Source of the DNA: Pseudomonadota bacterium | GTDB lineage: Bacteria; Bdellovibrionota_B; Oligoflexia; Oligoflexales; CAIYRB01 | Length of the DNA stretch: 37,488 bases | Assembly (NCBI GenBank): GCA_043750715.1 | Contig: JAYVBB010000175.1 | Location: 1 to 37,488, forward strand | Reading direction: 5' to 3' | In this document: piece after piece, positions 6,279-37,035 of the stretch | Numbering within the stretch: position 1 is the first letter of the stretch | Layout of the letters: the number at the start of each line of letters is the position of its first letter | The notes under the pieces: model-generated | Seen by the model: the letters and a program-made list of their open reading frames with translations, nothing else | Told to the model about the DNA's origin: nothing | Databases searched by the model: none | Program-made: the position numbers and the translations under genes

Positions 6279-6424
6279 GGGTCCTCCGGGGCATTGTTTC
6301 GGAAGGTCCGCGAAGACATTTAGGTAATCTCGAAAATTTGTAGTTCTTCCGAGCACCTCCGACTCCATAACGGCTCATAAACGCCGATATCTACTTAGGG
6401 AAACTTCTCAACCCGAAGGATTTC

Positions 6425-8368
6425 GTGCAGCGACTGCCTCTCCATCGCTCTCTGGCGTTCAAGCTCTTCTTGGGCGTCTCTTTCATGCTCTGCGTCGCGC
6501 TAGGCATCAACGCCTGGCACAACGCGGAAAGCATTCGCACGACTTTGCTCCTTGGAATCCAGGACAAAGCGATGCAGAACGCGCGGCGTACCGCGACCAG
6601 TGCCGATGCCGTGATCGACTCCTGGCTGAGCCAGCTCATCGTCATCACTAACGGGTTGAGCGGTGCTCCGAAAGACCGGTATAGCGAGCTGATCCAGGGA
6701 TTTGCCTCGTCGAATCCCGAATTTCTGACCGTCGAGCTGATGCTCGAAACGAAAGAAAACGGCAAAACGAAGTTCAGCTCGCTCGCGAAAGCGAACGTGG
6801 TGAACGCCAACGACGAGCGCCTTTTAGGCAAAGGGAACATGGAAGTCGCGACGAGCGTCGGCAACGCCGCGCGCAGTTGGCTTGAAGCCAAGACGCCGGA
6901 CGACAAGTCGCAAGGCTTCGCCATCACCAATCTCACGCTGACCTCGAAAGTCCCCACCGTCGGCCTCGTCCTCTCGTTCCCCGTCCGCGGCAGCTCCGAG
7001 AAGCTCTGGGCCGTCCTGACCGCCTGGCAGACGAAGCTCTACGGCTCGCTTTCCGGCGGTGGTCGCGACCAGGTTGCGCTTCTCGACGCCGGCGGCCGAC
7101 TCGTTTCGGCGTCCAACGTCAAGCTGCTCGACCGCGCCCGACAGAATTACACGTCGCACCCCCTGCTCCGCGGTTTGTCGGCGACCGCCTCGCCTTATGG
7201 ATTCAAGCAATGGCACCGCCGCACGGGTCCCGTCCTCGGTGCTTACGCCAAGCTGCCGCGCCTGGGCTTGATCGCGCTGACGGAATCAGACGCGACCCCG
7301 GCCTACGCCGCCATGCAAATGGTGCTGACGCGGTCGCTGCTGTGGGCCGCCCTGCTGCTCCTGGTCTCGCTGCTCGCCAGCTACCTGGCCGCATCCGGAA
7401 TCACCCGCAACCTCCGCCAACTCATGGCAACCACGGTCCAAATCGCCAACGGCGACTTCAAGGCCCGGGTCGAGCTGAAGTCGAACGACGAAATCGGGCT
7501 CCTCGGCGGAGCCGTCAACAACATGGGTGGCCAGCTCGAACTCCTTATGGGGGACCGCCTGGAGAAGGCCCGCCTCGAAGCCGAGCTCAAGACCGCGAAA
7601 ATCGTCCAGGACGCGTTCTTCCCCAAACTAAAGCCCGACGAGGCGGAGTTCCGCTTCTCGACGTTCTTCCGCCCGGCCTCCGAGTGCGGAGGCGACTGGT
7701 GGGGCCACTACCGTCTGTCTCCCAAGCACGAGCTGATTTGCATCGCGGACGCGACTGGTCACGGCGTTCCCGCAGCCCTCGTGACGGCGATGGTCTTTGC
7801 CGCGACGTCGATCATGGCGAGGCGCTTCGTCGAGCGCGGTAAAGACCGCTACTCGCCGTCGGACCTGCTGCGCGAGCTCAATGCAACCCTCTGCGAAACG
7901 GAGAGCGCCAAGCTTACGATGACGTTCTTCGCCATCATCTTCGACCTCGAGACGGGCTTCATGCACTTCTGCAACGCCGCCCACAATTTCCCGTTGCTGC
8001 TGCGAAAGGGCGAGGTCGCTCCGATCACGCTGCGCTCGGTCAACGACCCGCTCGGCATGTACCCGGACGTCGCCTACAAGGACGCCGAGCCCGTGCAGAT
8101 CATGCCGGGCGACCGCGTCATTCTCTTCACCGACGGGCTGATCGAGTGCACGGACGCCAAAGATGACCCGTGGGGCCGCCGTCGCTTCCATAAGGCATTG
8201 AAGGCTCATACGGGCGGATCCCTCGTCGAGCTCAAGGACAACCTTGTGAAAAGCGCTTACGCCCACTTCGGCGACCACCCGGCGGAAGACGACGTCACGG
8301 TCGTCGTCACCGAAGTTCCCGAAACCTGGGAATCGCCCGCTCTTCCCAAGCTGGAGGAAGCCGGATGA
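6425..8368 (+). CDS. membrane sensor with periplasmic domain, HAMP domain and PP2C/SpoIIE-family serine phosphatase domain (RsbU-like)
   Basis: GTG start with a GAAGGA RBS. N-terminal TM, ~270-aa extracytoplasmic region, second TM. HAMP segment (ITRNLRQLMATTVQIANGDFKARVELKSNDEIGLLGGAVNNM). PP2C motifs GGDWWG, DATGHGVPAALV, LFTDGLIE, DDVTVVV. Confidence 0.9.
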   Translation: MQRLPLHRSLAFKLFLGVSFMLCVALGINAWHNAESIRTTLLLGIQDKAMQNARRTATSADAVIDSWLSQLIVITNGLSGAPKDRYSELIQGFASSNPEFLTVELMLETKENGKTKFSSLAKANVVNANDERLLGKGNMEVATSVGNAARSWLEAKTPDDKSQGFAITNLTLTSKVPTVGLVLSFPVRGSSEKLWAVLTAWQTKLYGSLSGGGRDQVALLDAGGRLVSASNVKLLDRARQNYTSHPLLRGLSATASPYGFKQWHRRTGPVLGAYAKLPRLGLIALTESDATPAYAAMQMVLTRSLLWAALLLLVSLLASYLAASGITRNLRQLMATTVQIANGDFKARVELKSNDEIGLLGGAVNNMGGQLELLMGDRLEKARLEAELKTAKIVQDAFFPKLKPDEAEFRFSTFFRPASECGGDWWGHYRLSPKHELICIADATGHGVPAALVTAMVFAATSIMARRFVERGKDRYSPSDLLRELNATLCETESAKLTMTFFAIIFDLETGFMHFCNAAHNFPLLLRKGEVAPITLRSVNDPLGMYPDVAYKDAEPVQIMPGDRVILFTDGLIECTDAKDDPWGRRRFHKALKAHTGGSLVELKDNLVKSAYAHFGDHPAEDDVTVVVTEVPETWESPALPKLEEAG

Positions 8369-9849
8369 AGCGTCTCCTCGTAGCTGCAGCCGCCTTCCTG
8401 TCCGGGAGCGCCTATGCCGAAGTGCGGCCGCATCGCCTATTCGTCGAGCTGAAACCCGGCTCGACGCCGGTCTGTTCGACATTGGCTGAATCGCTGCGCT
8501 TTCACTTTCAGTCCCGGCAACGCATGGAGCTCTCGGACCTGTCCAAGGCCGACCACGTCATAAGCCTTGCCTGCGACGCCACGCTGGTCGACGCGACTTG
8601 GACGACGCGGATAGTGACAGCCGGGAAGAAGGAGAAGGAAGAGGTCGTCACGGCGTCCGTGCGCTTGGCCATCGCCGGCGACCCGACGAAAAGCCATCCC
8701 TCGCTGGCTCTGGCGCTGACACAGCAACTGCTCGACAAGATCCCCTGGGACGGCGAGATCAACGCCCTCATAAAACCGCGTAAGATCGAAGGCAAGTCGG
8801 AGCTCATGGGACCGCCCGCCAAAGGCATCCACACGATGGCCAACGCGGCCGCGGGCTACATTCAGAGCGTCGCCGCGACCAACTGTTCGCCCTTCGAAGT
8901 GGCCTTGATCCGCAAAGGCTCCGAAGGGGCCGAACTCGAAGTGATCGGCGAGGGCGCCTTCACTTCGGTCGGCACCTTCGCTTCGCCGTCGGAAGTCTAC
9001 CTCGACCGCAAGGTCCCGCCGGGCACTCGGCCGGTTTTCCGGTTGATCCTCGTCGCCGACGCCCGCCGCGAAGTCCGCAAGCTCGTCGCGCGCTGCAAGA
9101 AGACGATCGGTGAAGGCGAAGGCGAAAGCCTGTCCCGCCTCGTCGCGGGCGATCTCGGCAAGGCCCTTTCCAAGGAGACGATCGAGATCAACATGGTCCA
9201 GCAAAGGGCCGGTCTCTTCGCCGCGCAATACTCGTCGAAGAACGGCGTCAAGATGCCGTTCGGCGCCGTGGCCTTCGCCCAAAGCCGCGCCGACATCGGC
9301 GACTTCCTTGCCGTCGACGGCCGCATCGCGCGAAGCGTCTCTTCCCGGCCGTATGCGCCGACCCTCGGAGAGTCGGCGGTCAACCCCGAGATCACGTTCG
9401 GCGAAGGCTTCGCGATGGCCCGTTTCTCCCTCGACGATGTGACCATTACCGTGGGGCCGGGCCTCATTCTGGAGAAGGTCAACTCGCCTTTCTACGAGGC
9501 CAATGAAGAACGCACGACGACGGACGCTGACGGCAACACGGCTCCGAAAAAACCCCAACAGCGCTCGTCCAACGCGCGCGGGGCCTTCGCCCTCGGAGTG
9601 CGCACCGAGATCGACGGCTGGATCCTCGACGCGCAGACGGCCTTTTCCCTGGGCAAGGGAAACAACCACCTGACGTTCGAGTCCGGCCTGAACTACCGCC
9701 TGACCGACACCTGGTTCGCGGGCGGCAACCTGTTCGTCCTTGGCCTCGGAGCGGATCGCAAAGGCGCCCCCGGGGGTCGGCTCGTAGCCGTTGGCGGCAA
9801 CATCGGCTTTCTGCTCAAGCGCACGAAAAAGGAAGGGCCCCACCGTTGA
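8365..9849 (+). CDS. secreted protein, C-terminal half beta-barrel-like (candidate outer-membrane component)
   Basis: Its ATG overlaps the phosphatase stop (ATGA), with a GGAGGA RBS. Signal peptide MKRLLVAAAAFLSGSAYAE. The C-terminal ~200 aa has alternating-hydrophobic strands (GAFALGVRTEIDGWILDAQTAFSLG...LNYRLTDTWFAGGNLFVLGLG). No terminal aromatic residue. Confidence 0.7.
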   Translation: MKRLLVAAAAFLSGSAYAEVRPHRLFVELKPGSTPVCSTLAESLRFHFQSRQRMELSDLSKADHVISLACDATLVDATWTTRIVTAGKKEKEEVVTASVRLAIAGDPTKSHPSLALALTQQLLDKIPWDGEINALIKPRKIEGKSELMGPPAKGIHTMANAAAGYIQSVAATNCSPFEVALIRKGSEGAELEVIGEGAFTSVGTFASPSEVYLDRKVPPGTRPVFRLILVADARREVRKLVARCKKTIGEGEGESLSRLVAGDLGKALSKETIEINMVQQRAGLFAAQYSSKNGVKMPFGAVAFAQSRADIGDFLAVDGRIARSVSSRPYAPTLGESAVNPEITFGEGFAMARFSLDDVTITVGPGLILEKVNSPFYEANEERTTTDADGNTAPKKPQQRSSNARGAFALGVRTEIDGWILDAQTAFSLGKGNNHLTFESGLNYRLTDTWFAGGNLFVLGLGADRKGAPGGRLVAVGGNIGFLLKRTKKEGPHR

Positions 9850-10184
9850 AATGCGCTGCCCTTCTCATTTCGGTGATCTGGCACGCATCTCTGGCAGGGG
9901 CCGATCCTCTGAATGATCCGGAGCGGCGTTTGGATAAATACGCCCATTTTGGCATCTCGACGACGATCACCGCGGCGTTCGAGACGATCATCAAAGGATT
10001 CCACCGCGACCACCGCGTTTCCGACGAGAACCGGTCGGTCTCGAGTACTCTGGCCCTCTCCATCGGCGCCATCAAGGAATACCGCGACTTCAGCGCTGGC
10101 GCCACGCGCGAAGAGTGTCGCCGGGACCTCATAGCAGACGCCTTGGGCGTAGCTTTCGGCAATCTGCTTCACTGGGAGTTTTGA
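9846..10184 (+). CDS. small YfiM/DUF2279-like envelope protein
   Basis: TTG start overlaps the upstream stop (TTGA). Hydrophobic N-terminus. DKYAHF ... IKEYRD ... RRDLIADALGVAFG resembles the DKxxHF / KExxD / DxxAxxxG pattern of the YfiM family as I remember it. Confidence 0.5.
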   Translation: MKCAALLISVIWHASLAGADPLNDPERRLDKYAHFGISTTITAAFETIIKGFHRDHRVSDENRSVSSTLALSIGAIKEYRDFSAGATREECRRDLIADALGVAFGNLLHWEF

Positions 10185-10188
10185 CGTT

Positions 10189-10896
10189 TTGTCAGCCGTG
10201 AAACCGAGCAAAATCTATTCCGTCACCGAAGTCGTCGGCGAATCTCCGCACGCGCTTCTGCCGGAATTGATGGCTCTGTTGCAGAGGCCCGATCACGTTT
10301 CCCAGGTCTATTGGTTCGCCCGTCGCTGCTTCGACGTCAGCCTGGCACTGCTGGTTCTGATCGTCGGCATGCCCGCGCTGATTACGATTGTCGTGGCGAT
10401 CAAGCTGGAATCCAAAGGACCGGTCTTCTTCAAACAGAGCCGTGTCGGTCAGCACCTGCGCATCTTCGGGATCTTCAAGTTCCGCACCATGTTCCAGGGG
10501 GTCGACTCGGAACCGGTGGCGTTGTTCGATGCCGAATCCCAGACGTTCCGCCGGCCGCGGTTCAGTGAAGACCCGCGCGTCACGAAAATGGGTCGGATGC
10601 TCCGCCGCTTCAGCTTCGACGAGCTGCCCCAGGTATTGAACATCCTGTCGGGAGACATGAGCTTCATCGGCCCGCGGCCACTGACCATCACCGAATCTCT
10701 TGCAGTACCGAAGTCAGCATTGTGCCGCTATTCGGTTCCCGCCGGCATCACGGGCCTCGCGCAAATTCGTGATCGTCACTCGCTCTTCACTTACAACCGC
10801 TTCGACTCCGACATCGAATACACGAAAACGGTGTCGCTGCGCGTCGACTTCCACGTCTTTTGCCGGACGTTCCGGCGAATGCACGACTTGGGCTGA
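10189..10896 (+). CDS. undecaprenyl-phosphate sugar-phosphate transferase (small monotopic 'bacterial sugar transferase' PGT), locus A
   Basis: Motifs: KGPVFFKQSRVG, FKFRTM, DPRVTKMGRMLRRFSFDELPQVLNILSGDMSFIGPRP (Asp-Glu dyad), GITGLAQI. The start is uncertain: TTG 10189, GTG 10198 or ATG 10270. Confidence 0.9.
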   Translation: MSAVKPSKIYSVTEVVGESPHALLPELMALLQRPDHVSQVYWFARRCFDVSLALLVLIVGMPALITIVVAIKLESKGPVFFKQSRVGQHLRIFGIFKFRTMFQGVDSEPVALFDAESQTFRRPRFSEDPRVTKMGRMLRRFSFDELPQVLNILSGDMSFIGPRPLTITESLAVPKSALCRYSVPAGITGLAQIRDRHSLFTYNRFDSDIEYTKTVSLRVDFHVFCRTFRRMHDLG

Positions 10897-11019: not shown

Positions 11020-11069
11020 GTGCCGACTAATAGGTGCGAGTCCGCGCCGGGCGGTCACGAGAAGGCACG

Positions 11070-13322
11070 ATGACGAAATCGAACACATCGTTTGAAGACA
11101 TCTACGATCGACTTTACCGCTTCCGCGCCCTAATCGCGGTTGCGATGGTAATTGGTTCGACGGTTGCGTTCTTTCTCGCCTATACCGTCAACAAATACTC
11201 GGCAACGGCGACCCTGCTGGTCCAAAAAGCCGAGACCAACCTGCTGCAAGGCCTGACTGCGGACGCCAACCGCAGGATGTCGTTCGGCGGCATAAACGGC
11301 CGCGACGTCTACGTCGAAAAGTTTCTCGTTTATCTAAACTCGAAGAGCTTTTACAACGCCGCCTTCGAAGAGATTTCCGTCCTGCCCGAGTATAAGTGGA
11401 TTCGCCGCACGCTGGTTCAGACTCGTCTCCAGGGATTCAAGGAACGCCTGCAAGGCTACGGTTTCCCGGTCCACGTCCGCATCGACGACAGCGCCGGACC
11501 GAACTTGGCCCGTGTGCTGCAAGGCACCGTGCGAATCAACCGCGGCGACCGCAATACGCTGAGTGTAACTGCCACCACCGGCAACCGCGATGTTTCGGTC
11601 TTGCTAGCCAACCTGATTGCCGACATCGCCATCAAGCACACCATCGAGCGCGAGCTCAAGGAATCCGACGAAGCCCGTGCCTACATTCTGACGAAGATCA
11701 ACGATATCGGGGGCAGGCTGGACGAAATTCGCTCGGGAATAACTGCTTTGGCCAAGGGCACGTCCACCGGGTCGCTTTTCGACAACCCGTTGCGCGTTTC
11801 GAACAGCGACCGGCTGCAGGCCGACATCCAGGCCTCCGCCCTGCGGCTCAGCGCCAACAAAAAGGCGATATCCCGGCTCGTCGGTGCCGTGAAAAACCGT
11901 AGCGCCAACCTCGCCGGCTCCGCCAATACCAACGGAGAAGAGCTGGTCGGATCGCTCATGCGCCAGATCGAATCGCTGCAATCGCGTCGAAGCTCCCTGG
12001 TCGCTCAAGGCACCAGCGTCGACTCGGCGCTGATTCGTGAGCTCGACGAGGAGTTAAAAGCCACGAAAACCCGCCTGAAGACGATGCAAGACGAACCGAC
12101 GGACGATGCGGATGGCACCGGCATCGACCCCGCGGAACTACTGCGCGAGCTGCAAATCGAAAACGTCAAGCTCGGCGACTACTTGGGCTCGGCCAAGGAG
12201 ATGTACAAAACACTCGTCGCCAAAGACGCCAACGTCCCCGAAAATCAGCAGCGCCAGATGAGCATGATGAAGCGCGCCGATATCGAGCACGCGCTGCTCG
12301 CCGAGTTGACGAAGCAGCTATTCCAGTTGGACGTGCAAAAGATTTCTTTGAAAAACAAGATCGCCGTGCTCGAGTCCTCTGACCCGGACGGCGTCCTCCG
12401 CACCCCGAGCGTGGACTCCTCCGTCTTCTCCGGCGCGCTGCTCGGCGCCTTGGCGGCCGTCGCCTTCGCCCTATTCCTCGAGCACCGCGACCCGACGGCG
12501 TTCACCGTTCGGGACCTGCAGTTCTTCCAATTTCAGCACTTGGGCTCCATCCCGCGCCTCGGTCTTCGCAATCCTAAAAAGCGCGGCAACAGCCTCGGAG
12601 GGCAGTTCGGCTCGACTGCCTTCCATAGTCCTATGCAGTTCGGCGCCTATTCGATGATCATAAAGTACGTCCGCACTCGCCTGATCCGGATCGCCAAAGA
12701 CACCGGCTCCGGAGCCCGGGTCATCTCGATCCACAGCGCGGTTGCTGGCGAAGGCAAGACGATGGTCGCTTACGGAATCGCCCAATCCCTGGCGTCCCTC
12801 GGTCGTCGCGTCCTCTTCGTCGACGCCGACGTGCTGGGATCCCGGATGCGCGAACTGTTCGCAACCGAGAACTCGGGGGGCCTGGTCGCTGTTTTGAGCG
12901 GCCAATCGACCCTCAAAGAGGCGCTGGTTTTGAACGCCACGCCGAACCTCGACCTGCTCCCTCCTGGGGCGCGCGTCCTCGACTCGACGGAGCTGCTGAC
13001 CAACGGTCAATTCGAAGTCATCATTGCCGCCGCACGGAGCCAATACGACTTCGTCGTGGTCGACACTCCGCCGGTGAACCTAGTTCCGGACGCGACTTTG
13101 ATTGCGGCCGCCGCCGACATCGTGACCTTCGTGGTCTCCTGCTCCCGCACTAAAATTCGGGAAGTGGACGAAGCCGTGAATAACTTGACTCAAGCGACGG
13201 ATCGCCCCCTTTACCTGATACTCAACCGGGTCCGCCGGGCGGCCCGGAAGGGCGGTGCCTACAACTACGCATACAATCCCAACGTGAAACCGGCGGAGCT
13301 GCCGAAGATCCGCGCCAGTTGA
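11070..13322 (+). CDS. polysaccharide co-polymerase (Wzz/GumC-type) fused to BY-tyrosine autokinase (PCP-2a, Wzc-like), locus A
   Basis: ATG at 11070 with a GAGAAGG RBS. N-terminal TM, long coiled periplasmic region, second TM (ALLGALAAVAFALFL). Walker A AVAGEGKTMV, Walker A' VLFVDADV, Walker B DFVVVDTPPV. C-terminal tyrosine cluster GGAYNYAYN. Confidence 0.9.
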   Translation: MTKSNTSFEDIYDRLYRFRALIAVAMVIGSTVAFFLAYTVNKYSATATLLVQKAETNLLQGLTADANRRMSFGGINGRDVYVEKFLVYLNSKSFYNAAFEEISVLPEYKWIRRTLVQTRLQGFKERLQGYGFPVHVRIDDSAGPNLARVLQGTVRINRGDRNTLSVTATTGNRDVSVLLANLIADIAIKHTIERELKESDEARAYILTKINDIGGRLDEIRSGITALAKGTSTGSLFDNPLRVSNSDRLQADIQASALRLSANKKAISRLVGAVKNRSANLAGSANTNGEELVGSLMRQIESLQSRRSSLVAQGTSVDSALIRELDEELKATKTRLKTMQDEPTDDADGTGIDPAELLRELQIENVKLGDYLGSAKEMYKTLVAKDANVPENQQRQMSMMKRADIEHALLAELTKQLFQLDVQKISLKNKIAVLESSDPDGVLRTPSVDSSVFSGALLGALAAVAFALFLEHRDPTAFTVRDLQFFQFQHLGSIPRLGLRNPKKRGNSLGGQFGSTAFHSPMQFGAYSMIIKYVRTRLIRIAKDTGSGARVISIHSAVAGEGKTMVAYGIAQSLASLGRRVLFVDADVLGSRMRELFATENSGGLVAVLSGQSTLKEALVLNATPNLDLLPPGARVLDSTELLTNGQFEVIIAAARSQYDFVVVDTPPVNLVPDATLIAAAADIVTFVVSCSRTKIREVDEAVNNLTQATDRPLYLILNRVRRAARKGGAYNYAYNPNVKPAELPKIRAS

Positions 13323-13352: not shown

Positions 13353-13880
13353 ATGTACCGATCCCTACTTATCATCTACCTGGTCGCAACGGTCGCGCTA
13401 CCCGCGCGGGCCGAGCCGCTCATCGCGGAACGTCCCCGCCTCGAAGGTTCGCCCGGCTTCGGCCGGAAGGAAATCGGCAACGTCGCGCAGGAATTCTACT
13501 CGCCGGGCTATGCGGGAGAGCTGCTGATCCCCGTCAAGGTCATCGGCGCCGTGAAAGCAGCCGGCATCTACCACATTCCCAAAAAAACAGACCTCGCCAC
13601 GCTGCTCGCCATGGCAGGCGGTATGACGGGCGCCGCAAGCAACAGCGTACTGATCAAACGTCGCGCGCTCGCGAAGGAAACGGTAACCGTCGTCGACCTC
13701 ATGCACGCCATCGAGACGCCGGACGTCGCACTGCCGTTTCTGGAGACGGACGACATCGTCGTCGTACAAACCAAAGAGCCGATCGTTTCCCCGGACACTT
13801 TGACGATGATGGGACTCGTCGCGTCGGTCCTCAGCCTGATACTTTCCAGCATCATCATCTCGCAAGCCACCCGGAAGTAG
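13353..13880 (+). CDS. SLBB-domain polysaccharide export protein, truncated 'mini-OPX' (signal peptide + one SLBB + C-terminal helix), locus A
   Basis: Signal peptide ends ARA-EP. SLBB segment IPVKVIGAVKAAGIYHIPKKTDLATLLAMAGGMTG...VLIKRR followed by LETDDIVVV. C-terminal hydrophobic helix MMGLVASVLSLILSSIIISQATRK. Paralogue at 28990..29472. Confidence 0.8.
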   Translation: MYRSLLIIYLVATVALPARAEPLIAERPRLEGSPGFGRKEIGNVAQEFYSPGYAGELLIPVKVIGAVKAAGIYHIPKKTDLATLLAMAGGMTGAASNSVLIKRRALAKETVTVVDLMHAIETPDVALPFLETDDIVVVQTKEPIVSPDTLTMMGLVASVLSLILSSIIISQATRK

Positions 13881-13886
13881 TGGTCG

Positions 13887-15422
13887 ATGGTCAAAGCGGA
13901 CAACGTCAACAACAACCTCATAGCGCTGATCAGCGCCGCGCTCTTCGGAATGGAGCTGTGGACCGGCACGGACCCTTTCTTCGCGTTTCTCATGGCGATG
14001 TGCGTCCTCTTCTTTTTTCTCTCCTTCAACCGCCTGGGCGGCCTGACGACACCTGTCGGAGGGGCCTTCACCGTCTTGGGCGCATCGACGGTACTCATCT
14101 CGCAAGTGGCTAAAATCGTGCTTTCGCAACCTGCGGATTCCTATTTGAAGGCTCCGCTGCCCACGGCGCTGGTGATGACTTTCGGCATGGCCTCGGTCTA
14201 CGTCGCGACTCACGTGAGGGACATCCTGCCGTCCATCACGCCAGCGGTTCGGGTGATCACGAATCCAAGCCAGTATCGGGCCATTTCTCTTCTGACCATC
14301 TCGACGCTCGTCCTCTTCTCGATTGCCGACGCTGTCATCCCGACGTTCCGGTTGATGCCCGGAGTCCTGGGATTCGTGGCTCTGATGCCCTATCTGTCAG
14401 GGCTCGCCTTGTGTACCGAAGTCGCCTACGCGATCAAGACCTCGGGCGGCCGGAAGTCCACCACTTTTCTGTTTTATCCGATCGTACTGTACATTTGGAT
14501 TCCGGCCTTTTACGGACTGTGGAAGTCCGGCATGTTTTTTCCGGTGATGATCTACCTCGTGACCATCTTCAGCTTCCGGTATCGCTTCCGGCCCGCCAAC
14601 TACGCGGCAGGCGTCGCCGTTTTGGGCCTGCTGTTTCTGATCGGCCTGCCTCTGTCCAAGCTGGGTCATAATTATATCGCGGACAAATACGAAGGCGACA
14701 TGATCGGCTCCCTGACCGAGTTCGCCGAAGACCTAGGAGAAAGCGGCGGCATCATGACGCTCCTCGATTCCCGGGTCGACGACTGGCTCGCCCCGTCAGA
14801 CGATAATGCATTCGGTCAATACTATGGCTCGGACATGGGATTCCTCGATCGTCAATCCCTCATCGCGGCAGCCGACTGGCTGATTGCCGACAGCCTCCCC
14901 CGTCAAACCGAAGGCCTCGAGCGGTTCTTTGGTCGGGTGACTCTGTTACCCAAAGCTCTGACTGGCGACGCCGTGACGGACGGCAGCAACAACTATCTGG
15001 CGGTACGCGCCGGTATTCTGGACGAGAACGACCTCGTCACGGGCATTGCTTTCGGCATCTTCGCCGACCTCTTCGCGCACTTCAATTTTTTGGGCTTGCT
15101 CTTATCCGCACCTTTGCTTTTTCTGGCTTTTTTCCTCGCGACGGATCTGGTGGCGCGCACGATGACCAACAATCTCTGGGGCATCATGATGTTTGCGGTC
15201 TCAGAACACACCCTGGCCGAAAGCAATGGCGCGGGAGTTATATTTCACATCGTGCGGACCGTCCCTTTTTTCATTGCCGTCTTCTACGTCATGGAGACTA
15301 CCTCCGGACTCTTGGTCGACTTCTTCCAGGACAGGCGATCCTCGCACGCGTCCTTGACGCTTCTACCGGTCGTCGCCAGGGGCGAGTTCGAAGGCATCCG
15401 AAGATCGGCTCGTGACCGGTGA
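13887..15422 (+). CDS. polytopic membrane protein, candidate Wzy-type polymerase of unrecognised family
   Basis: 511 aa. About 8 N-terminal TM segments, a ~110-aa hydrophilic loop (NYIADKYEGDM...GILDENDL), then about 3 more TM segments. Sits between the export and GT genes, 6 nt after the SLBB gene, and its stop overlaps the next start (GTGA). Confidence 0.65.
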   Translation: MVKADNVNNNLIALISAALFGMELWTGTDPFFAFLMAMCVLFFFLSFNRLGGLTTPVGGAFTVLGASTVLISQVAKIVLSQPADSYLKAPLPTALVMTFGMASVYVATHVRDILPSITPAVRVITNPSQYRAISLLTISTLVLFSIADAVIPTFRLMPGVLGFVALMPYLSGLALCTEVAYAIKTSGGRKSTTFLFYPIVLYIWIPAFYGLWKSGMFFPVMIYLVTIFSFRYRFRPANYAAGVAVLGLLFLIGLPLSKLGHNYIADKYEGDMIGSLTEFAEDLGESGGIMTLLDSRVDDWLAPSDDNAFGQYYGSDMGFLDRQSLIAAADWLIADSLPRQTEGLERFFGRVTLLPKALTGDAVTDGSNNYLAVRAGILDENDLVTGIAFGIFADLFAHFNFLGLLLSAPLLFLAFFLATDLVARTMTNNLWGIMMFAVSEHTLAESNGAGVIFHIVRTVPFFIAVFYVMETTSGLLVDFFQDRRSSHASLTLLPVVARGEFEGIRRSARDR

Positions 15423-18004: not shown

Positions 18005-18133
18005 TACAGGATTTAACAAAGGTCCGAGGCATGCGGCTGAAGCCCGGGAGTGTGATAAAATGGAGCTACTCCATCTCTAACCTCTTTGCCGGTCCAGCCC
18101 TCCCAATTCAACTCGCGCTCGTGGGGAAACTCC

Positions 18134-19894
18134 TTGAAGAAGCATGTCGTGCTTGGCATCAGCTCAAGCCACGGCGATTCGTCCGCGGCACTCATTGTCG
18201 ACGGGACGGTCGTTGCCGCCGTGGAAGAAGAGCGCTTCGACCGCATCAAGCATTCCGCGCAGTTTCCCGAGCACAGCATCCGTCACTGTCTGGCCGCGGC
18301 CGGCCTAAATGCGACGGACGTGGATCTCGTCGCGCTGCCGCGGAGCCGCTCCGCCGCCTGGCTCCGCAAGCTCCGGTTCGCCTGGAGCGGCCGCAACACG
18401 GTTTCGGGACTCGCCAACTACCTCAGCCGCGAACGCAATCGCAGCTCCGACGTCGAAGCCTTGGCCGAGTTGGGCTTTGACCCTTCCCGGCTGCGTCGCG
18501 TCGAGCATCACGTCGCCCACTTGATGAGCGTCCGGATGCTGCGCCCGCGGGACCCCATGGCGCTTTTGTCCTTCGACGGCTTGGGGGACTTTGCCTCCAC
18601 CGTGACCGCCGTGACGGACGGCGACAAGATGCGCGTGCTGAAGCGCACCTACTTCCCCCACTCGCTCGGCTTTTTCTACACGGCCATGACGCAGTTTCTA
18701 GGCTTTCCCTACTTTGGGGACGAGTTCAAAGCCATGGGTCTGTCGAGCTTCGGTCGGCCGCGCTACCTGGAAGCTCTGCGTGAGCTCGTGATGACCCGCC
18801 CGGACGGCGGTTTCGAGTTGAATCTGCGGGCGTTCCCCGTCGCCAAGTTGGGCAAATCCTTCCGCATCGACAAGGGCCGGCCGATCGTCGGACCGATCTT
18901 CGACGCGGACGTCGTCTCGGCCGTGCTCGGCCTGAAAGAGCGCCGCCCCGGGGACGAGGTGCTCCCCGAGCACGAAGACTTGGCCCTTTCAGTGCAGCGC
19001 CGCTTCGAGGAAGTGGCGGCGCACGTCCTCTGCGATCTGCACGCCAAGACCAAGAGCGACACCATCGCTCTAGCCGGTGGCTGCGCCCACAACAGCGTCT
19101 TCGTCGGCAAGATTCCCGCGCTTACCCCTTTCAAACAAGTCCTCGTCGCGCCGGCTGCGGGCGATGCCGGACTGGCATTGGGGGCCGCCGCCTGCGTCCA
19201 CGGCGGCGCCGTCACGCCCGCCAGCGGCCATTGGGGTCTGCTCGGTCCGGACATCGCGATGGATCAGGGTGCGTGGGTCGAGCTGGCGATTCCAACCCGG
19301 CAACGGCAGTACCAGGACGACGCTTCGCTGATCGAGCGCCTGGTCGACGAGCTCGTCAAAGGCAAGGTCGTCGGTCTGGCTCGGGGCCCGATGGAGTTCG
19401 GACCGCGCGCACTCGGCAGCCGCAGCATCGTTTGCGATCCGCGGCACGAATGGATGAAGCGGCGCCTCAACTCGCTGGTCAAGCATCGCGAGCCCTTCCG
19501 GCCTTTCGCCGCCTCCGTTCTCGAAGAGCAGCAGAACGACTGGTTTCAGAACTGCCGGGAGAGCCCCTTCATGGAAGCAGTCTTCGCCGTCAAACCCGAG
19601 CGCAAGGACGCCATACCAGCCGTCGTCCACGCCGACGGATCCTGCCGGATTCAATCGGTGTCGCATGCGAGCCAGCCGTTCTATCACGAGCTGATCAGCG
19701 CCTTCGCGAAACGGACGCAGGTGCCCATGCTGCTCAACACGTCTTTCAACGACAGCGAGCCCATCGTCCGCACCTCCGCTGAAGCCATCGACTGCTTCCT
19801 CCGCGGCGGTCTGGATCACGTCGTCATCGGACGAGTGCTGATCTCGCGCGAAGACGCCACGGCCTGGGGCGACCACCCGGCCAAAGCCGTCTAA
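18134..19894 (+). CDS. NodU/CmcH-family carbamoyltransferase
   Basis: VVLGISSSHGDSSAALIVDGTVVAAVEEERFDRIKH is the canonical N-terminus of the family, followed by GGCAHNSV and a C-terminal domain with PAVVHADGSCRIQ and LNTSFN. TTG at 18134 with a GGGGAA RBS is preferred to the ORF-track start at 18086; GTG at 18149 is also possible. Confidence 0.9.
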   Translation: MKKHVVLGISSSHGDSSAALIVDGTVVAAVEEERFDRIKHSAQFPEHSIRHCLAAAGLNATDVDLVALPRSRSAAWLRKLRFAWSGRNTVSGLANYLSRERNRSSDVEALAELGFDPSRLRRVEHHVAHLMSVRMLRPRDPMALLSFDGLGDFASTVTAVTDGDKMRVLKRTYFPHSLGFFYTAMTQFLGFPYFGDEFKAMGLSSFGRPRYLEALRELVMTRPDGGFELNLRAFPVAKLGKSFRIDKGRPIVGPIFDADVVSAVLGLKERRPGDEVLPEHEDLALSVQRRFEEVAAHVLCDLHAKTKSDTIALAGGCAHNSVFVGKIPALTPFKQVLVAPAAGDAGLALGAAACVHGGAVTPASGHWGLLGPDIAMDQGAWVELAIPTRQRQYQDDASLIERLVDELVKGKVVGLARGPMEFGPRALGSRSIVCDPRHEWMKRRLNSLVKHREPFRPFAASVLEEQQNDWFQNCRESPFMEAVFAVKPERKDAIPAVVHADGSCRIQSVSHASQPFYHELISAFAKRTQVPMLLNTSFNDSEPIVRTSAEAIDCFLRGGLDHVVIGRVLISREDATAWGDHPAKAV

Positions 19895-23817: not shown

Positions 23818-24514
23818 TGTGGAACCTCTCGGCGATCCGGGCACGAACCTCGCGGGCGATCAACTTTCTCGATTTGTGTCCTCGGAACGCCACTTCGCCC
23901 AGGACCGAGACCTGGGCTCTGATCGTCTTCGTTTGCATGAGGCTCCAGAGATGGGGGAAGAACGTCATCTCCCCATACCAGGCGACCTCGGGCGCCTGGT
24001 CATACCGAAGACACACGGGTACGACGCGACATGAGCTGCGTATCGCCGATTCTAGCAAAGTTTTCTTGAACTCCATAAGGTGTTCGCCGTTGGACGTCGA
24101 CCCTTCCGGGAAGAGCGTGACCGAATGGCCGCGATTCAGGAGATCGGCCAGCTGAATGATGTCCTGCTGCACGCTCCAGACGTTGCGCCGCTCGACGAAG
24201 GCACAGCCGGCGGCGCGGGTGATCCAGCCGAGCACGGGGGTTTGCTCGATCTCCCGCGACGTGACGAACACGGACGGAAAGATCGCATTGATTACGATGA
24301 CGTCGACGTAAGAAATGTGATTCGGCAGCACGAGAATCGGCCGACCCTCGACCTCCGCGAGCCCCTCGGGATCGTCGACCTCGCAGCGGATGTCCAGGAT
24401 CCTCATCAACAGGAAGCACACGAGCCGCGTCAGGGCCACGACGCGCCGTTGCCCGGAGTCCCGCGACGTGGTGGTCATGCGGAGGAGCAGGGCGGCCGGC
24501 ACGAAAGAGATCAT
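23771..24514 (-). CDS. olsA: PlsC-family lysolipid O-acyltransferase (OlsA-like)
   Basis: NHISYVD (HX4D) and FPEGSTSNG motifs. The ATG at 24514 overlaps the upstream stop (ATGA). The longer 345-aa ORF-track version would run through the upstream gene and is Arg-rich. Confidence 0.8.
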   Translation of the reverse strand: MISFVPAALLLRMTTTSRDSGQRRVVALTRLVCFLLMRILDIRCEVDDPEGLAEVEGRPILVLPNHISYVDVIVINAIFPSVFVTSREIEQTPVLGWITRAAGCAFVERRNVWSVQQDIIQLADLLNRGHSVTLFPEGSTSNGEHLMEFKKTLLESAIRSSCRVVPVCLRYDQAPEVAWYGEMTFFPHLWSLMQTKTIRAQVSVLGEVAFRGHKSRKLIAREVRARIAERFHSEAPSPRNARVEGTG

Positions 24515-28988: not shown

Positions 28989-28989
28989 G

Positions 28990-29472
28990 CTATTGCCGTT
29001 TCGAGACGAAGTAAAGCGTAAGGACGGAAACCGCGGACGACACCGCGGCAAAAATCAGCGGCAGGTCCGACTTGAAAGTGCGTTCGACGTAAATCATGTC
29101 CCGATCTTTCACGGTGAAGGACTCGGCATTGTGAAACAGGTCCAGGTACTGCTCTTTGCTGTCCCGAACCAGGCGAATGTTCGGCATGTTGGCCAGTCCG
29201 GTCGGACCGCCCGCCGATCCCAGCGCATCGGTCAGCTTCGAGCCGACCGGAATGAAGTGAACTCCCGGCTGGAAGACCTCACCCCAGATGTTGACGCTGA
29301 CCAGGACTTTCGCGCCGGGCTTGGTCGTGAAGAATTCGGAGCCCGACCGCTTGGGCAACTCGTCCGGCTGAACGTACGGCTCGGCAACCAGCCGCGAGCT
29401 CCAAAATGACAAGATCAGGATACCGGCGAGAAAGCGGTATTTTTTGAGACGAACGGGGCATCTGGTGGTCAT
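28990..29472 (-). CDS. SLBB-domain 'mini-OPX' paralogue, locus B
   Basis: Signal peptide ends LVA-EP. SLBB segment VSVNIWGEVFQPGVHFIPVGSKLTDALGSAGGPTG...IRLVRD, then VKDRDMIYV. C-terminal helix LPLIFAAVSSAVSVLTLYFVSKRQ. Confidence 0.8.
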   Translation of the reverse strand: MTTRCPVRLKKYRFLAGILILSFWSSRLVAEPYVQPDELPKRSGSEFFTTKPGAKVLVSVNIWGEVFQPGVHFIPVGSKLTDALGSAGGPTGLANMPNIRLVRDSKEQYLDLFHNAESFTVKDRDMIYVERTFKSDLPLIFAAVSSAVSVLTLYFVSKRQ

Positions 29473-33611: not shown

Positions 33612-35951
33612 TCAAGAAGTCTTGCGGTAACGCTCGGACGAGTAGCGATAGCGAGCCATGGACCCGAGCTCCACGCCGCTGCCGGACTGGGTCATGATCG
33701 ACATCACTGGAGTGTCGGGCCGGCGATGCCTCTCGACGGACGCCACCGCCTCCTCCATTTCCGCGACGCGCGAGCGACCTTCTCGGCAGCATAGAATGAT
33801 CGAGTCGGCTTGCTCGACGAGGAGGCAGGAGTCGCTGACAAAGAGCGGCGGTCCGTCGATCACGATGGCGTCCACTTCGCGCCGAAGCAACGCCAGGGCT
33901 CGCAGCAAGGTGTCGATGGGGCCGTCCATCGTTACGGGCTGCGGGCCAGTCGCTTCAGCCGAGGGAGAGAAGTGAAAAATCGCAGGCTCCCGCGTCGTCG
34001 CCTGGTCCCGAACCGCATGCTTGATCGTGGCTTCGACGGGCAGGTTCGGCGCGATCTCGTGGACGACGGCCCCTTCGGGGACGTGCGTCATGACGTTGCG
34101 GTCGACGGCGCGCACGTCGAAGTCGACCAGGGCCACGCGCAGGCCTTTGCGCTGCAGCGAATACGCCAGGATGACCGCGGAAACCGATTTGCCCATTTTC
34201 GCCTCATTGCCGCAGACCACCAGCGTGTGGCCAGGGACCTTCGATCCGACGATGCGCTTCTTGATGGCGTAGCCGAGGCGGCTGACGGTGTCGTTGATCT
34301 GGGCCTGCGCGAAGATCGAAAGGCCGCCGCGCCGGGCGCGGAACCGCGGGACGGAACCGATGTACGACGTCAAAGGCAGCGTTTTCAGCTGATCCGCCGA
34401 GAAAATCGTTTCGCGGAGCATGTCGTGAGCGGCCCAGAGCGCCGCAATGATGACCGCCACGAACACGAGTAGAGACAACAGCATCATCGGCTTACTCGAC
34501 GACGAAGTGCTCGCGATCGCCGGATCCTCGATGACGAAGAGGCTGTTGATGTCCGAATCGCTTTGTATCAGGTTTTTGTAGTAGAGCTCCGTCAACACGG
34601 TAAGTACCTGGACGATGCGCGAATGGTCGATCATCATTTGAGACATCTTGGCCTGGAGCTCGGGGAATCTCGCCACCTCGCGCTGGTTTTCCATCAGATT
34701 GGCGTTCGATTCCTCGTAGTACTTCGACGCGGACGCCACCTCGCTTTCGAGCGACGACTGCTGACGGGAGACGTCTTGATAGAGGTCTTTGAGCCTCGGC
34801 AGTTCCAGCAGCTGCTTGCCGTCGCCAGTCGGCGCGACTTTCGCCAGCTCCATCTTCATTTGCTCGAGCTTCTCGTCCAGCAGCGCGTCGCCGCTCCCCG
34901 CGGAGCCGCCGCGAATCTGCACCTTGCCGAGTTGATACCGCCGAATTTCCGCTTGCAGGGCCTCGAACTTGCTCGTGTCGAAGTCCGAGATCTTGCCCTT
35001 CATCGAATCGGAGAGGCTTGCGGCCGTGGTCTTCAGGGTCTTAAGCATCGCCTGACTCGCCAGCACCTTGGCTTTCGCTTCGCCCACTTTCGCCATCGTG
35101 TCGAGCAGGGACTGGTAGCGGAGATCGACGTATCTCTCGTTGTTCGGGAAGGAGTTTTGCCGCACGAAGGAAACGATTTGGTCGGCGCTTTGCGCGAGCT
35201 CCGCCCGGGTGTCGTCGATCTTCTTGCCGAGAAAGGTCACAGTCTTGCGGGTCTGCTCGTTGGCGATCGACCGGTTGAGGTCGGTGAGCGAAGTTGCCAG
35301 GACTTGCGTGATTCTGAGAGCTCTCTCGGGATTGGGATCGCTGAATTCGATCGTGAACGACCCCGCGTCCAGCTCGCTGTTGAATTTGATCCTTTTTTTG
35401 AAGGCCAGATAGTCCCAATCGACGTACTTCTCGCGCGCGACCACGTACTCTTCGCCGAACATTTTCACTTTCAGGGGTCGAAGCCACTGCTTGAATTTCT
35501 TGCTCACCGGCACCGGCTGGTCAGGACCCGGAGCCGCGTCGGACCGGAGCGCTGTCTGAACTTTTCGGTAGATGACCTGTGACGTGATCAGGGTTTCCTG
35601 GCTCGTGATGAATGTGTCGCGTTCCATGGCAGAAAGGTGGCCAGACAATCCGGCGAAGTCTGCGCCTTGCAAGGGAGAAGCCGACGGTGACGTGGCGAAG
35701 ATTTTCAGCGATGCGCTGAGTGGCAAGTCGGAGAAGCGGACGACGGTTAGAATTGCTGGCAAACAAAGGAGCATGGCCAGGAGCATCGGCTTCAGCCGGG
35801 CCCTCGGCACATGACGGACATAAAAAAGAAAATCCTGCTTCAAACCAAAAACCTCGTAACGCTCTATCGGCGCGCCGCGGGCAGGCGTGAATCCAGGGAT
35901 TGGGGCGTTCCGGCAAAGATCGAGGCTTTTATCCCAGGATCGCCGCGGCAT
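33612..35951 (-). CDS. polysaccharide co-polymerase fused to BY-kinase-like P-loop domain (PCP-2a), locus B paralogue
   Basis: N-terminal LKQDFLFYVRHVPRARLKPMLLAMLLCLPAIL (Wzz-type start + TM1), coiled periplasmic region, TM2 (MMLLSLLVFVAVIIAALWAA). Walker A GNEAKMGKS, A' VALVDFDV, B AIVIDGPPL. C-terminal RYRYSSERY. ATG 35951 is preferred; ATG 36008 is the maximal ORF. Confidence 0.85.
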   Translation of the reverse strand: MPRRSWDKSLDLCRNAPIPGFTPARGAPIERYEVFGLKQDFLFYVRHVPRARLKPMLLAMLLCLPAILTVVRFSDLPLSASLKIFATSPSASPLQGADFAGLSGHLSAMERDTFITSQETLITSQVIYRKVQTALRSDAAPGPDQPVPVSKKFKQWLRPLKVKMFGEEYVVAREKYVDWDYLAFKKRIKFNSELDAGSFTIEFSDPNPERALRITQVLATSLTDLNRSIANEQTRKTVTFLGKKIDDTRAELAQSADQIVSFVRQNSFPNNERYVDLRYQSLLDTMAKVGEAKAKVLASQAMLKTLKTTAASLSDSMKGKISDFDTSKFEALQAEIRRYQLGKVQIRGGSAGSGDALLDEKLEQMKMELAKVAPTGDGKQLLELPRLKDLYQDVSRQQSSLESEVASASKYYEESNANLMENQREVARFPELQAKMSQMMIDHSRIVQVLTVLTELYYKNLIQSDSDINSLFVIEDPAIASTSSSSKPMMLLSLLVFVAVIIAALWAAHDMLRETIFSADQLKTLPLTSYIGSVPRFRARRGGLSIFAQAQINDTVSRLGYAIKKRIVGSKVPGHTLVVCGNEAKMGKSVSAVILAYSLQRKGLRVALVDFDVRAVDRNVMTHVPEGAVVHEIAPNLPVEATIKHAVRDQATTREPAIFHFSPSAEATGPQPVTMDGPIDTLLRALALLRREVDAIVIDGPPLFVSDSCLLVEQADSIILCCREGRSRVAEMEEAVASVERHRRPDTPVMSIMTQSGSGVELGSMARYRYSSERYRKTS

Positions 35952-37035
35952 ACGCCTGCACCGCCGCTTCCACCGAAAAAGACCGGCCGCGGCGGCGTAA
36001 GGCGTCACGGGAGGGACTTTCGGCCGCGGCCTCGCGGATCGCGACGGCGAGGCGTTCCGGGTCGCCGGGAGGCACCAGCCGTCCGAACCGCCCCCCTTCG
36101 AGGATCTCGCCAGGTCCGGCCCGACAGTCGGTCGAGACCACGGGACAACCGAGGGCCAACGCTTCGATCAAAACGCTAGGCAGGCCCTCGCGCACGGACG
36201 AAAGCACGAACAAATCCGCGCGTGCAAGATAAGCAAAGGGATTGCAGCTGAATCCGGGCAGGGACACGGCGTCACTGATGCCGAGAGTCCTGGCCTCCGC
36301 TTCGAGGCGCACCCGTTCGGGACCCTCGCCGAGAATCAACAGACGCACCGGCGTGTTTCTGCGGACTATGGCGACTGCCTTCAGCAACGTCGCCTGATCT
36401 TTTTGTGGTGTGAGACGACCGATGTTCAGCAGGAGCGGGCCCGTGCCTGCCGGCAACCACGACTCGTCGACGGGCCTCGTCGCCAACTCGTCGATTTCAG
36501 GGCGAAAGATCGGATTATAGATCACTCGCGCCGGAGGAGATACGACGCCCAGATAGTTCCGAACCGAGTCGGCGACACCTTGGGAGACGGCGATGACCGT
36601 CGCGCTGGACCCGTAGGTCCGTCGAGCGGCGAGCTTTCGCAACCAGCCGAGGCTCATGCTCGCAAAGACGTCGTCGTCATAGGAAAGATGGGCCACGGCC
36701 ACGTGTTTGGCGCGACTTCCCGCCAAACGCAAGGCCAAGCTCGTCGCGATGTTGGCTGCCGTCAGATGGGATACCACGACGTCCGGCCGAGCCCGGCGAA
36801 AGTACGCGACGAGCGGCGGTATCGCCCGCGCCAAGCGGCTGGCGTCGAACCGAATGATGGGGATGCCGAGCTTCGCTGCCCCGAACGCGTCTTCGCCCCG
36901 CGACAACTGAACGACTTCGAGCGTGCCGGGTGCTAGGGATTTCGCCAACCCGGCTAGCAAGTTGACGACCACCCGCTCGGCGCCCCCTCCTGCAAGGTTG
37001 AGCACGACAAATACCGTCTTTTGGGGAACCGCCAT
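35929..37035 (-). CDS. GT-B glycosyltransferase, family 4
   Basis: VFVVLNLAGGGAERVVVNL N-terminus and SVREGLPSVLIEALALGCPVVSTDCRAGPGEIL. First gene of the minus-strand locus-B operon. Confidence 0.9.
   Translation of the reverse strand: MAVPQKTVFVVLNLAGGGAERVVVNLLAGLAKSLAPGTLEVVQLSRGEDAFGAAKLGIPIIRFDASRLARAIPPLVAYFRRARPDVVVSHLTAANIATSLALRLAGSRAKHVAVAHLSYDDDVFASMSLGWLRKLAARRTYGSSATVIAVSQGVADSVRNYLGVVSPPARVIYNPIFRPEIDELATRPVDESWLPAGTGPLLLNIGRLTPQKDQATLLKAVAIVRRNTPVRLLILGEGPERVRLEAEARTLGISDAVSLPGFSCNPFAYLARADLFVLSSVREGLPSVLIEALALGCPVVSTDCRAGPGEILEGGRFGRLVPPGDPERLAVAIREAAAESPSRDALRRRGRSFSVEAAVQAYAAAILG

Follow-up and report, generated by a model that had tools for sequence, protein, structure and literature searches.

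The window analyzed here, positions 1-37,488 of contig JAYVBB010000175.1 from a Pseudomonadota bacterium (GC content about 62%), comprises two undecaprenyl-phosphate-dependent polysaccharide loci, each encoding a small secreted protein composed of a signal peptide, a linker, a single SLBB domain, and one C-terminal helix. These proteins, termed A and B after their loci, carry no Poly_export/PES domain, the N-terminal domain of OPX (outer membrane polysaccharide export) proteins such as Wza. The short SLBB-plus-helix form is real and conserved, and in every A-type locus recovered its gene lies in the "wza position" beside the gene for a Wzc-like polysaccharide co-polymerase (PCP). We tentatively favor, with somewhat less than even confidence, the interpretation that A and B belong to the OPX lineage as members with one SLBB domain and no PES, each acting as the locus-specific periplasmic or outer partner of its Wzc-type co-polymerase, most likely at the outer membrane. 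No description of an SLBB-only, PCP-linked protein was found in the literature searched.

Architecture and relatives of proteins A and B

The two genes and the features of their products are as follows.

13353..13880 (+): SLBB-only protein A, 175 aa; open reading frame (ORF) call, Pfam, AlphaFold, Foldseek, and orthologues
28990..29472 (-): SLBB-only protein B, 160 aa; ORF call, Pfam, orthologues, and synteny in L013 and L014
13353..13412 (+): signal peptide of protein A, residues 1-20, MYRSLLIIYLVATVALPARA, cleaved before EP (…PARA, then EP)
Protein A (+), about residues 21-57: linker, modeled with low confidence by AlphaFold
13524..13772 (+): SLBB beta-grasp of protein A, residues 58-140, from AlphaFold secondary structure
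13791..13874 (+): C-terminal helix of protein A, residues 147-174, from AlphaFold; terminus ...SQATRK, tail RK
Protein B (-), residues 1-30: signal peptide, ...SSRLVA, cleaved before EP
29086..29295 (-): SLBB domain of protein B, residues 60-129, Pfam SLBB_2
29002..29064 (-): C-terminal helix of protein B, about residues 137-157, tail KRQ; C-terminal sequence LPLIFAAVSSAVSVLTLYFVSKRQ

The initial annotation had ascribed to both products the same succession of signal peptide, linker, single SLBB unit, C-terminal helix, and basic end, and this was borne out in every part, with both ORFs exactly as called there. Both signal peptides are of the typical signal peptidase I type and lack a lipobox, that of protein A containing no cysteine. 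The linker is ~35 residues long in both proteins and in A has a predicted local distance difference test (pLDDT) score below 50 in the AlphaFold model, in which residues 15-44 are of low confidence. The C-terminal helix spans roughly 21-28 residues and is followed by RK in A and by KRQ in B. The acidic strand that had been described after the SLBB unit was recovered as well, with D134 and V138 invariant in the family alignment (A1).

Proteins A and B share 29% identity (E 2e-8) and are ancient paralogues; each has a separate set of orthologues. Orthologues of A are 45-83% identical to it, and the A-type members P0002-P0004, P0067, and P0112 have the same architecture; orthologues of B are 43-78% identical, and the B-type members P0006-P0008 share the architecture of B. 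More distant members of the SLBB-only family are carried by L003, L004, and L005. A profile search of genome contigs with the B-type alignment recovered two relatives, one in a Bacteriovoracaceae metagenome-assembled genome (MAG) and one in an unclassified "bacterium" MAG, and a metagenome scan recovered a single short locus. A split or frameshifted OPX gene was ruled out: A and B each have their own signal peptide, and neither is a piece of a longer OPX gene, because the PCP stop codon lies 30 nt upstream of the start of A and a 116-nt divergent intergenic region precedes B.

Sequence and predicted fold of the SLBB domain

Profile searches had been proposed along with the initial annotation as a check on the SLBB assignment, and they sustained it. 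Protein A matches Pfam SLBB (PF10531; 30.9 bits, residues 61-114) and protein B matches SLBB_2 (PF22461; 41.2 bits, residues 60-129), both above the Pfam gathering score for SLBB of 27 bits, and WzaB and Wza were recovered both by sequence and by predicted fold. In the AlphaFold model of A (pLDDT 71), the beta-grasp of residues 58-140 is followed directly by the helix of residues 147-174. The best Foldseek match of this model in the Protein Data Bank (PDB) was the Class-3 OPX protein WzaB (9N9A; E 2.7e-5, root-mean-square deviation 1.8 Å over 83 columns), followed by E. coli Wza constructs and then by ComEA and GfcC, the last being a weak match (3P42, rank 15). When the family profile was compared with PDB sequences, WzaB (9n9a, 7.7e-7) and Wza (2j58, 5e-5) aligned over the whole domain; ComEA (8dss, 5.8e-7) was the top match by a small margin, but over residues 64-111 only, the first half of the domain. 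The SLBB domain of A aligns to residues 153-231 of Wza. In NCBIfam, the best matches were to OPX families (EpsE, EpsY, and Wza) over their SLBB portions; A and B lack the remainder of these proteins, and all of the scores accordingly lay far under the cut-off. Taken together, the profile matches and the modeled fold point to an OPX-type SLBB domain.

A profile search over 1.84 billion representatives returned 21,329 matches, the best 150 of which supplied a comparison set of long OPX proteins; 130 of the set fetched match a local PES profile. Because multi-SLBB repeat proteins dominate these best 150 of 21,329 matches (147 of 150), the size of the single-SLBB family is not countable from this search.

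Absence of the PES domain

At E<=1, neither A and B nor any of five relatives matched Poly_export/PES (PF02563), and the same holds for the remaining large window ORFs scanned (E<=0.001 for some, E<=1 for the rest). A local PES hidden Markov model (HMM) built from 130 PES domains gave no match in six-frame scans of the 37-kb window at E<=10 and of the related contigs L001-L010 at E<=1. The presence of a PES remnant in the linker was rejected, given that hhalign assigned a probability of 2% to the family profile against the PES profile. Within the window, the earlier statement that neither locus encodes a full-length OPX protein thus holds.

OPX proteins, as defined by Saidi 2022 and Schwabe 2022 (PMC9601211), have an N-terminal Poly_export/PES domain (PF02563). 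Proteins A and B do possess an SLBB domain like D2/D3 of Wza and are linked to PCP genes, but have no PES domain. Judged by domain content, the SLBB-only family falls outside the OPX proteins as currently defined. Every OPX class published so far is likewise keyed on PES, and the family was missed by both large OPX surveys because both retrieved or classified OPX proteins via PES.

Linkage to the co-polymerase

The following genes define the context of A and B.

11034..13322 (+): PCP-2a/Wzc-type co-polymerase with a BY-kinase (bacterial tyrosine kinase) domain and a Tyr-rich tail, 762 aa; TIGR01007, 128 bits (cut-off 108)
33612..36008 (-): second PCP-like protein with a P-loop domain, 798 aa, locus B; Pfam P-loop families
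10189..10896 (+): priming phosphoglycosyl transferase (PGT; Bac_transf), locus A; Pfam, 177.8 bits

The SLBB-only gene directly abuts the PCP-BY-kinase gene in all seven independent A-type or related loci counted, namely locus A of the window, L006, L009, L011, L012, L005, and L004. In L006, L009, L010, L011, L012, and L005, the SLBB gene is immediately preceded by the 3' end of a PCP orthologue. In L009 the PCP stop and the SLBB start overlap, and in L006 the pair is inverted onto the strand opposite to the remaining cluster and is nonetheless intact. The order is reversed in L004 (193-2939), from an unclassified high-GC MAG, where the SLBB-only gene lies upstream of, and overlaps, the PCP gene; the tail of this PCP is YGYGYGYGYYRYHYRY. 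The B-type gene lies within a PCP/Wzy locus but is not adjacent to the PCP gene; its own synteny, consisting of a divergent GT2 glycosyltransferase gene, the SLBB gene, and a downstream gene, is kept in L013 and L014. Every recovered SLBB-only context with identifiable neighbors is a polysaccharide locus.

The locus A PCP has transmembrane segments at residues 32-50 (TM1) and about 460-485 (TM2) in a transmembrane scan, enclosing a periplasmic domain of about 415 aa, and it aligns to the Wzc structures 7nhr and 9exo over residues 394-749. The PCP-like protein of locus B has transmembrane segments at 72-90 and 508-526, a periplasmic domain of about 417 aa, and weak NCBIfam matches (chain-length determinant, eps_fam) below the cut-offs. 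Locus A is assigned to an undecaprenyl-phosphate-linked polysaccharide pathway because of its priming PGT, which scores 208 bits against TIGR03025 (E 2.4e-61), below the 295.55-bit cut-off. The order of genes in locus A is HAMP-PP2C phosphatase, a 494-aa secreted protein, a 112-aa YfiM-like protein, PGT, PCP/BY-kinase, and SLBB protein A, beyond which lie a 511-aa polytopic protein, glycosyltransferases, an epimerase, a carbamoyltransferase, and an ABC exporter. Locus B contains a GT4 glycosyltransferase, the PCP-like protein, Wzy_C, another GT4, and a PGT, then the divergent GT2, and then SLBB protein B and a HAD-like protein.

Comparison with known systems

Like the Class-1 OPX protein Wza of E. 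coli (2J58), whose gene lies beside wzc, A and B have a beta-grasp SLBB domain and, directly after it, one C-terminal helix that ends in basic residues. Unlike Wza, which comprises D1 (PES), D2 and D3 (SLBB), and D4 (the Wza_C helix), they have no PES/D1, one SLBB domain rather than two, no lipobox, and no Wza_C match; their helix is uncharged and far more hydrophobic (Kyte-Doolittle 2.0-2.5 vs 0.69), and their mature forms have ~150 residues as opposed to ~360. Shortened OPX proteins are already known: those consisting of D1D2 plus a C-terminal helix, at most 280 aa long and mostly from Bacteroidetes, have been suggested to function like Wza (Schwabe et al. 2022, PMC9601211). A and B share with these the reduced size, the terminal helix, and an apparent lack of a coupled beta-barrel, and look like a next step of reduction, but all of the published proteins were found via, and contain, the PES motif, which A and B lack. 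The Class-3 OPX proteins WzaB, EpsY, and WzaX of Myxococcus xanthus pair with WzpB/EpsX porins (9N9A; PMC12819527, PMC9603273). WzaB provides the best structural match to the SLBB domain and resembles A and B in its small size and its pathway-specific pairing with a PCP. It is, however, a lipoprotein with a D1 (PES) domain bearing Arg106/Arg107, has Phe-Phe at its end where A and B have a helix, and depends on a porin of 18 strands; none of these features was found in A or B.

Two further proteins share the fold in other settings. GfcC/YmcB (3P42, PF06251), encoded in the group 4 capsule operon of E. coli, is likewise a PES-less capsule-locus protein with a Wza-like beta-grasp, but it has two such domains, whereas A and B have a single one, match 3P42 only weakly in fold, and do not match PF06251 at E<=1. 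GfcC is a soluble periplasmic protein that occurs alongside a full OPX protein (GfcE) and a barrel (GfcD), and its structure paper reportedly describes a C-terminal amphipathic helix. ComEA (8DSS, 8DFK) is, like A and B, a small membrane-anchored protein with an SLBB-like domain that the family profile detects, but with only the first half of the domain aligned. The anchor of ComEA is N-terminal, its C-terminal part is an HhH DNA-binding domain, and the protein belongs to a competence context; its SLBB-like domain is said in the structure paper to be an oligomerization domain. No HhH domain was found in A or B, and ComEA-like NCBIfam matches appeared only at E 0.03.

A proposed beta-barrel partner

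8365..9849 (+): secreted protein of 494 aa, signal peptide present; matches no family and no PDB sequence

This protein had been proposed in the initial annotation as a beta-barrel partner encoded in the same operon as A. Four of its cysteines are conserved, and its C-terminal ~150 aa are rich in beta structure, with hydrophobicity that alternates. Searches of Pfam (best E 0.061), NCBIfam, and PDB sequences gave no match, and the AlphaFold model, built from 3 sequences, was unusable (pLDDT 37.8). We infer that ~150 aa would form at most about 8-10 strands, too narrow a structure in comparison with 16-18-stranded porins. The gene overlaps the upstream HAMP-PP2C gene (6425-8368) and the downstream 112-aa gene (9846-10184) by 4 nt each, and the block formed by the phosphatase, 494-aa, 112-aa, and PGT genes recurs in L006, L007, and L008 (in part in L007 and L008). 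In L007 this block has no SLBB gene nearby, and in L006 it lies on the strand opposite to the PCP-SLBB pair. The earlier placement in one operon with A is thus loose: the translational coupling is to the phosphatase and 112-aa genes, and the arrangement in L006 separates the block from the PCP-SLBB pair. The barrel partnership itself was not supported, in view of the failed model, the lack of a family match, the small beta region, and a gene that travels with the phosphatase and the PGT. From its gene context we treat the 494-aa protein as a probable part of a regulatory or priming module rather than as a demonstrated export partner. No other conserved barrel candidate was found beside the SLBB genes.

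The conserved phosphatase-PGT block suggests, by its gene content, a phosphatase-based control of the priming step. Divergent from this HAMP-PP2C (SpoIIE-type) operon (6425-10896, +), and part of the conserved block, is a gene for a FecR-like bitopic protein (4437-6368, -).

The C-terminal helix and the role of the SLBB-only proteins

The C-terminal helices were scored by the Kyte-Doolittle 19-residue mean and by a summed Hessa scale, the latter being a simple central-position scale and not the full position-dependent predictor. B-type helices have Kyte-Doolittle values of 2.03-2.08 and Hessa sums of +0.6 to +2.0; the A-type values, which are higher in hydrophobicity, are considered below. The A-type helix is as conserved as the SLBB domain, with G154, V156, A157, S158, S161, and S165 invariant among A-type members. 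A stripe of small residues runs along it (A157, S161, and S165 in A), V156 and S161 are invariant across A and B, and this stripe is compatible with helix-helix packing in an oligomer. The L004 relative keeps both the architecture and the PCP adjacency, but its helix is amphipathic and charged, with an acidic end and ~12 uncharged residues, and cannot be a classical inner membrane anchor.

Comparable termini occur among long OPX proteins. In 47 of the 147 PES-containing multi-SLBB OPX proteins, the last SLBB domain is followed by a short linker and a single helix in an arrangement that can be aligned to the family profile and ends no more than 15 residues from the C-terminus, and a helix extension of this kind at any internal repeat was seen in only 22 proteins. 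Among these tails are some similar to the A-type motif (P0091, IMSIVASSLSIVNSAVGIFK; protein A, GLVASVLSLILSSIIIS), and basic ends are common on them and present on Wza as well. Some PES-containing OPX proteins (P0091, P0107, P0130, and similar) are giants, with 12-28 SLBB repeats and up to 2,313 aa. About 18% of such PES-OPX proteins end in helices with Kyte-Doolittle values of at least 1.6, hydrophobic enough to be called transmembrane.

Under the interpretation that we favor, A and B would be exported by Sec and cleaved by signal peptidase I, after which the protomers would oligomerize. The resulting SLBB ring would encircle the route taken by the growing polysaccharide, in the manner of rings R2 and R3 of Wza, and would contact the PCP, while the conserved C-terminal helices would pack through their Ser/Ala small-residue stripe into a membrane-embedded bundle. 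We favor the outer membrane as the site of this bundle, which would yield a one-ring "mini-Wza" that needs no beta-barrel. Such a protein would account for the wza-position synteny, the locus-specific paralogues, the lack of a PES-OPX gene in both loci and in the ten contigs related to the window, the amphipathic L004 helix, and the split between helix and barrel seen in published short OPX proteins. The presence in the two loci of divergent copies with 29% identity is as expected for a pathway-specific export component, and the SLBB-only family is most economically regarded as a reduced OPX derivative. A stronger version, in which ~150 mature residues with one SLBB domain, no PES, and no lipid anchor constitute a complete outer membrane polysaccharide channel docking directly on a Wzc-type co-polymerase, seems to us possible but less likely than not; in it, the SLBB ring would be fused to an alpha-helical outer membrane pore built of uncharged Ser/Ala-zipper helices.

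Several findings weigh against an outer membrane OPX derivative. The A-type helix has Kyte-Doolittle values of 2.26-2.47 and Hessa sums of -0.7 to -1.5 kcal/mol, is uncharged over about 21 residues, and matches the range of the window's own inner membrane helices (Kyte-Doolittle 2.1-2.8). It is more hydrophobic than all 147 PES-OPX tails, whose Kyte-Doolittle values have a median of 1.15 and a maximum of 2.18 (at least 1.6 in 26, at least 2.0 in 5, and at least 2.2 in none), and the E. coli Wza tail, its sequence verified against 2J58, scores 0.69. Because long uncharged hydrophobic segments stop transfer in SecYEG, protein A at least should stay in the inner membrane. Neither A nor B has a Pfam match to Wza_C (PF18412), and together with the lack of a lipobox this leaves them with no known outer membrane targeting feature. 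Homology of the helix to OPX tails is not demonstrable, since a helix-only HMM scored 8.2 bits at best against them, compared with 5.9 for reversed and 3.6 for shuffled tails. Nor does the SLBB domain show a specific affinity to the last repeat of long OPX proteins, which was its closest match in 27 cases observed vs 20.4 expected (P=0.07). An origin from that terminal repeat was accordingly set aside as not significant, the first repeat being the best match equally often. Finally, D1 is missing from A and B; in WzaB this domain carries the PCP contact (Arg106/Arg107), and D1 and D2 together drive the octamerization of Wza (PMC12819527).

It is nearly as likely, although again short of an even chance, that A and B are instead accessories anchored in the inner membrane. 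After removal of the signal peptide, the C-terminal helix would then act as a stop-transfer anchor with type I topology, leaving the SLBB domain in the periplasm and the basic tail in the cytoplasm. Through its small-residue stripe, it would pack on the transmembrane helices of the PCP and/or the polymerase, the SLBB domain would bind or guide the nascent glycan at the face of the inner membrane, and passage across the outer membrane would rely on an OPX protein or porin encoded elsewhere. What this explains best is the helix hydrophobicity, equal to that of the window's inner membrane helices and above that of every PES-OPX tail examined. It also agrees with flanking charges that follow the positive-inside rule (net positive on the C-terminal side, with RK, KRQ, or KKK, and neutral or acidic on the N-terminal side), with the lack of a lipobox, beta-signal, or Wza_C match, with a helix conservation equal to that of the SLBB domain, which suggests specific helix-helix contacts, and with the absence of D1, the domain by which known OPX proteins dock on the PCP crown. 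However, an unseen OPX protein would be needed for at least two loci, though each locus keeps its own divergent SLBB gene, and the charged amphipathic helix of L004 is unfit as an anchor despite the same synteny. The charge bias does not tell the readings apart, because basic C-termini are common among PES-OPX tails as well and Wza itself has one. In addition, 26 of the 147 bona fide PES-OPX tails pass a Kyte-Doolittle value of 1.6, and no precedent for an inner membrane-anchored SLBB protein in Wzx/Wzy pathways was found in the literature searched.

That the SLBB-only protein is a periplasmic adaptor bridging the PCP to a separate barrel, either the 494-aa protein or one encoded elsewhere, in the manner of WzaB/EpsY with WzpB/EpsX, is improbable in our judgment. 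The closest solved structure is indeed that of WzaB, an OPX protein of Class 3, and the 494-aa protein, with its signal peptide and beta-rich C-terminal ~150 aa, co-occurs, in the window as well as in L006, with the PCP-SLBB pair. Yet published short OPX proteins with a C-terminal helix lack a coupled barrel (PMC9601211), and A and B have such a helix. The 494-aa protein yielded a model of pLDDT 37.8 and no family or PDB match, would have at most 8-10 strands against the 16-18 of Wzp, PgaA, and AlgE, and is encoded by a gene coupled to those for PP2C and PGT that in L007 stands without an SLBB gene beside it; next to the SLBB genes, no further barrel candidate is conserved. We consider it very improbable that the helix and basic tail form a C-terminal sorting signal (PEP-CTERM/exosortase, GlyGly-CTERM, or MYXO-CTERM) or that the SLBB domain has a ComEA-like role unrelated to export. 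The terminus does have the tripartite look of such signals, with a short motif, a hydrophobic helix, and a basic cluster, and the PCPs weakly match XrtA-associated families, but no NCBIfam sorting-signal model matched A or B at E<=1 or the relatives at E<=0.01, and no exosortase or rhombosortase family matched among the window ORFs scanned. A PEP-CTERM-type signal was rejected on this basis. Moreover, the "EP" before the A-type helix corresponds to the usual post-strand V-P-E of OPX SLBB domains and is absent from B-type members. As for a role like that of ComEA, its structure was the top PDB sequence match, but only by the small margin noted above and over half the domain, as opposed to the whole domain for OPX proteins, and the lack of an HhH DNA-binding domain and the recurrence of polysaccharide loci in every context with identifiable neighbors both argue against it.

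Other genes of the window

Directly downstream of the gene for A lies that of the 511-aa polytopic protein (13887-15422, +), which has at least 7 hydrophobic segments, matches nothing in Pfam or NCBIfam, and is kept with the SLBB gene in L001 and L002; it is possibly a divergent Wzy-type polymerase. Among the ORFs scanned, neither locus showed a Wzx/MOP flippase. The ABC exporter of locus A (21035-22783, +) is a fused ABC_membrane and ABC_tran protein, with HepA-family, MsbA, and PglK matches all below cut-off, and may be a lipid-linked-oligosaccharide flippase or a polysaccharide exporter. The carbamoyltransferase (18086-19894, +; Carbam_trans_N and Carbam_trans_C), encoded among the locus A glycosyltransferases, suggests from its domains that the polymer contains a carbamoylated sugar.

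Downstream of the gene for B, a 144-aa ORF (28617-29051, -) contains a DxDxT (IDFDNTL) HAD-phosphatase-like motif. Its listed start overlaps the gene for B by 62 nt, and its true start is probably later; a gene occupies the same position after the B-type orthologue in L013 and L014 (1485 onwards). Elsewhere in the window are adjacent, overlapping genes for a GNAT protein (Acetyltransf_5) and a PlsC-type acyltransferase (23771-25347, -), which resemble the OlsB/OlsA ornithine-lipid pair. A 266-aa beta-rich protein with a signal peptide and no family match (2042-2842, +) may be a small outer membrane barrel, and the neighboring gene encodes a 468-aa lipoprotein (2900-4306, -) with an LGGC lipobox, a Gly/Thr-rich linker, and no family match.

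Implications

The modularity of OPX proteins is already known to be wide, and surveys keyed on PES/Poly_export have a blind spot for PES-less SLBB-plus-helix proteins in the wza position. The small size of the SLBB-only protein makes it easy to approach by structure determination and genetics, whichever role it has. If it is anchored in the inner membrane, it would represent a new accessory subunit of Wzc-type machines. If it is an exporter, it would be the smallest OPX protein and a minimal unit for carrying the polymer onward from the co-polymerase and through the outer membrane. Poly_export would then no longer be a feature of every OPX protein, which would revise the definition of the family, and, with the domain thought to mediate PCP docking and octamerization gone, the role of each OPX domain would become directly testable. 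A complete channel of this kind would be a new type of integral alpha-helical outer membrane protein and would raise the question of how so hydrophobic a helix escapes the inner membrane.

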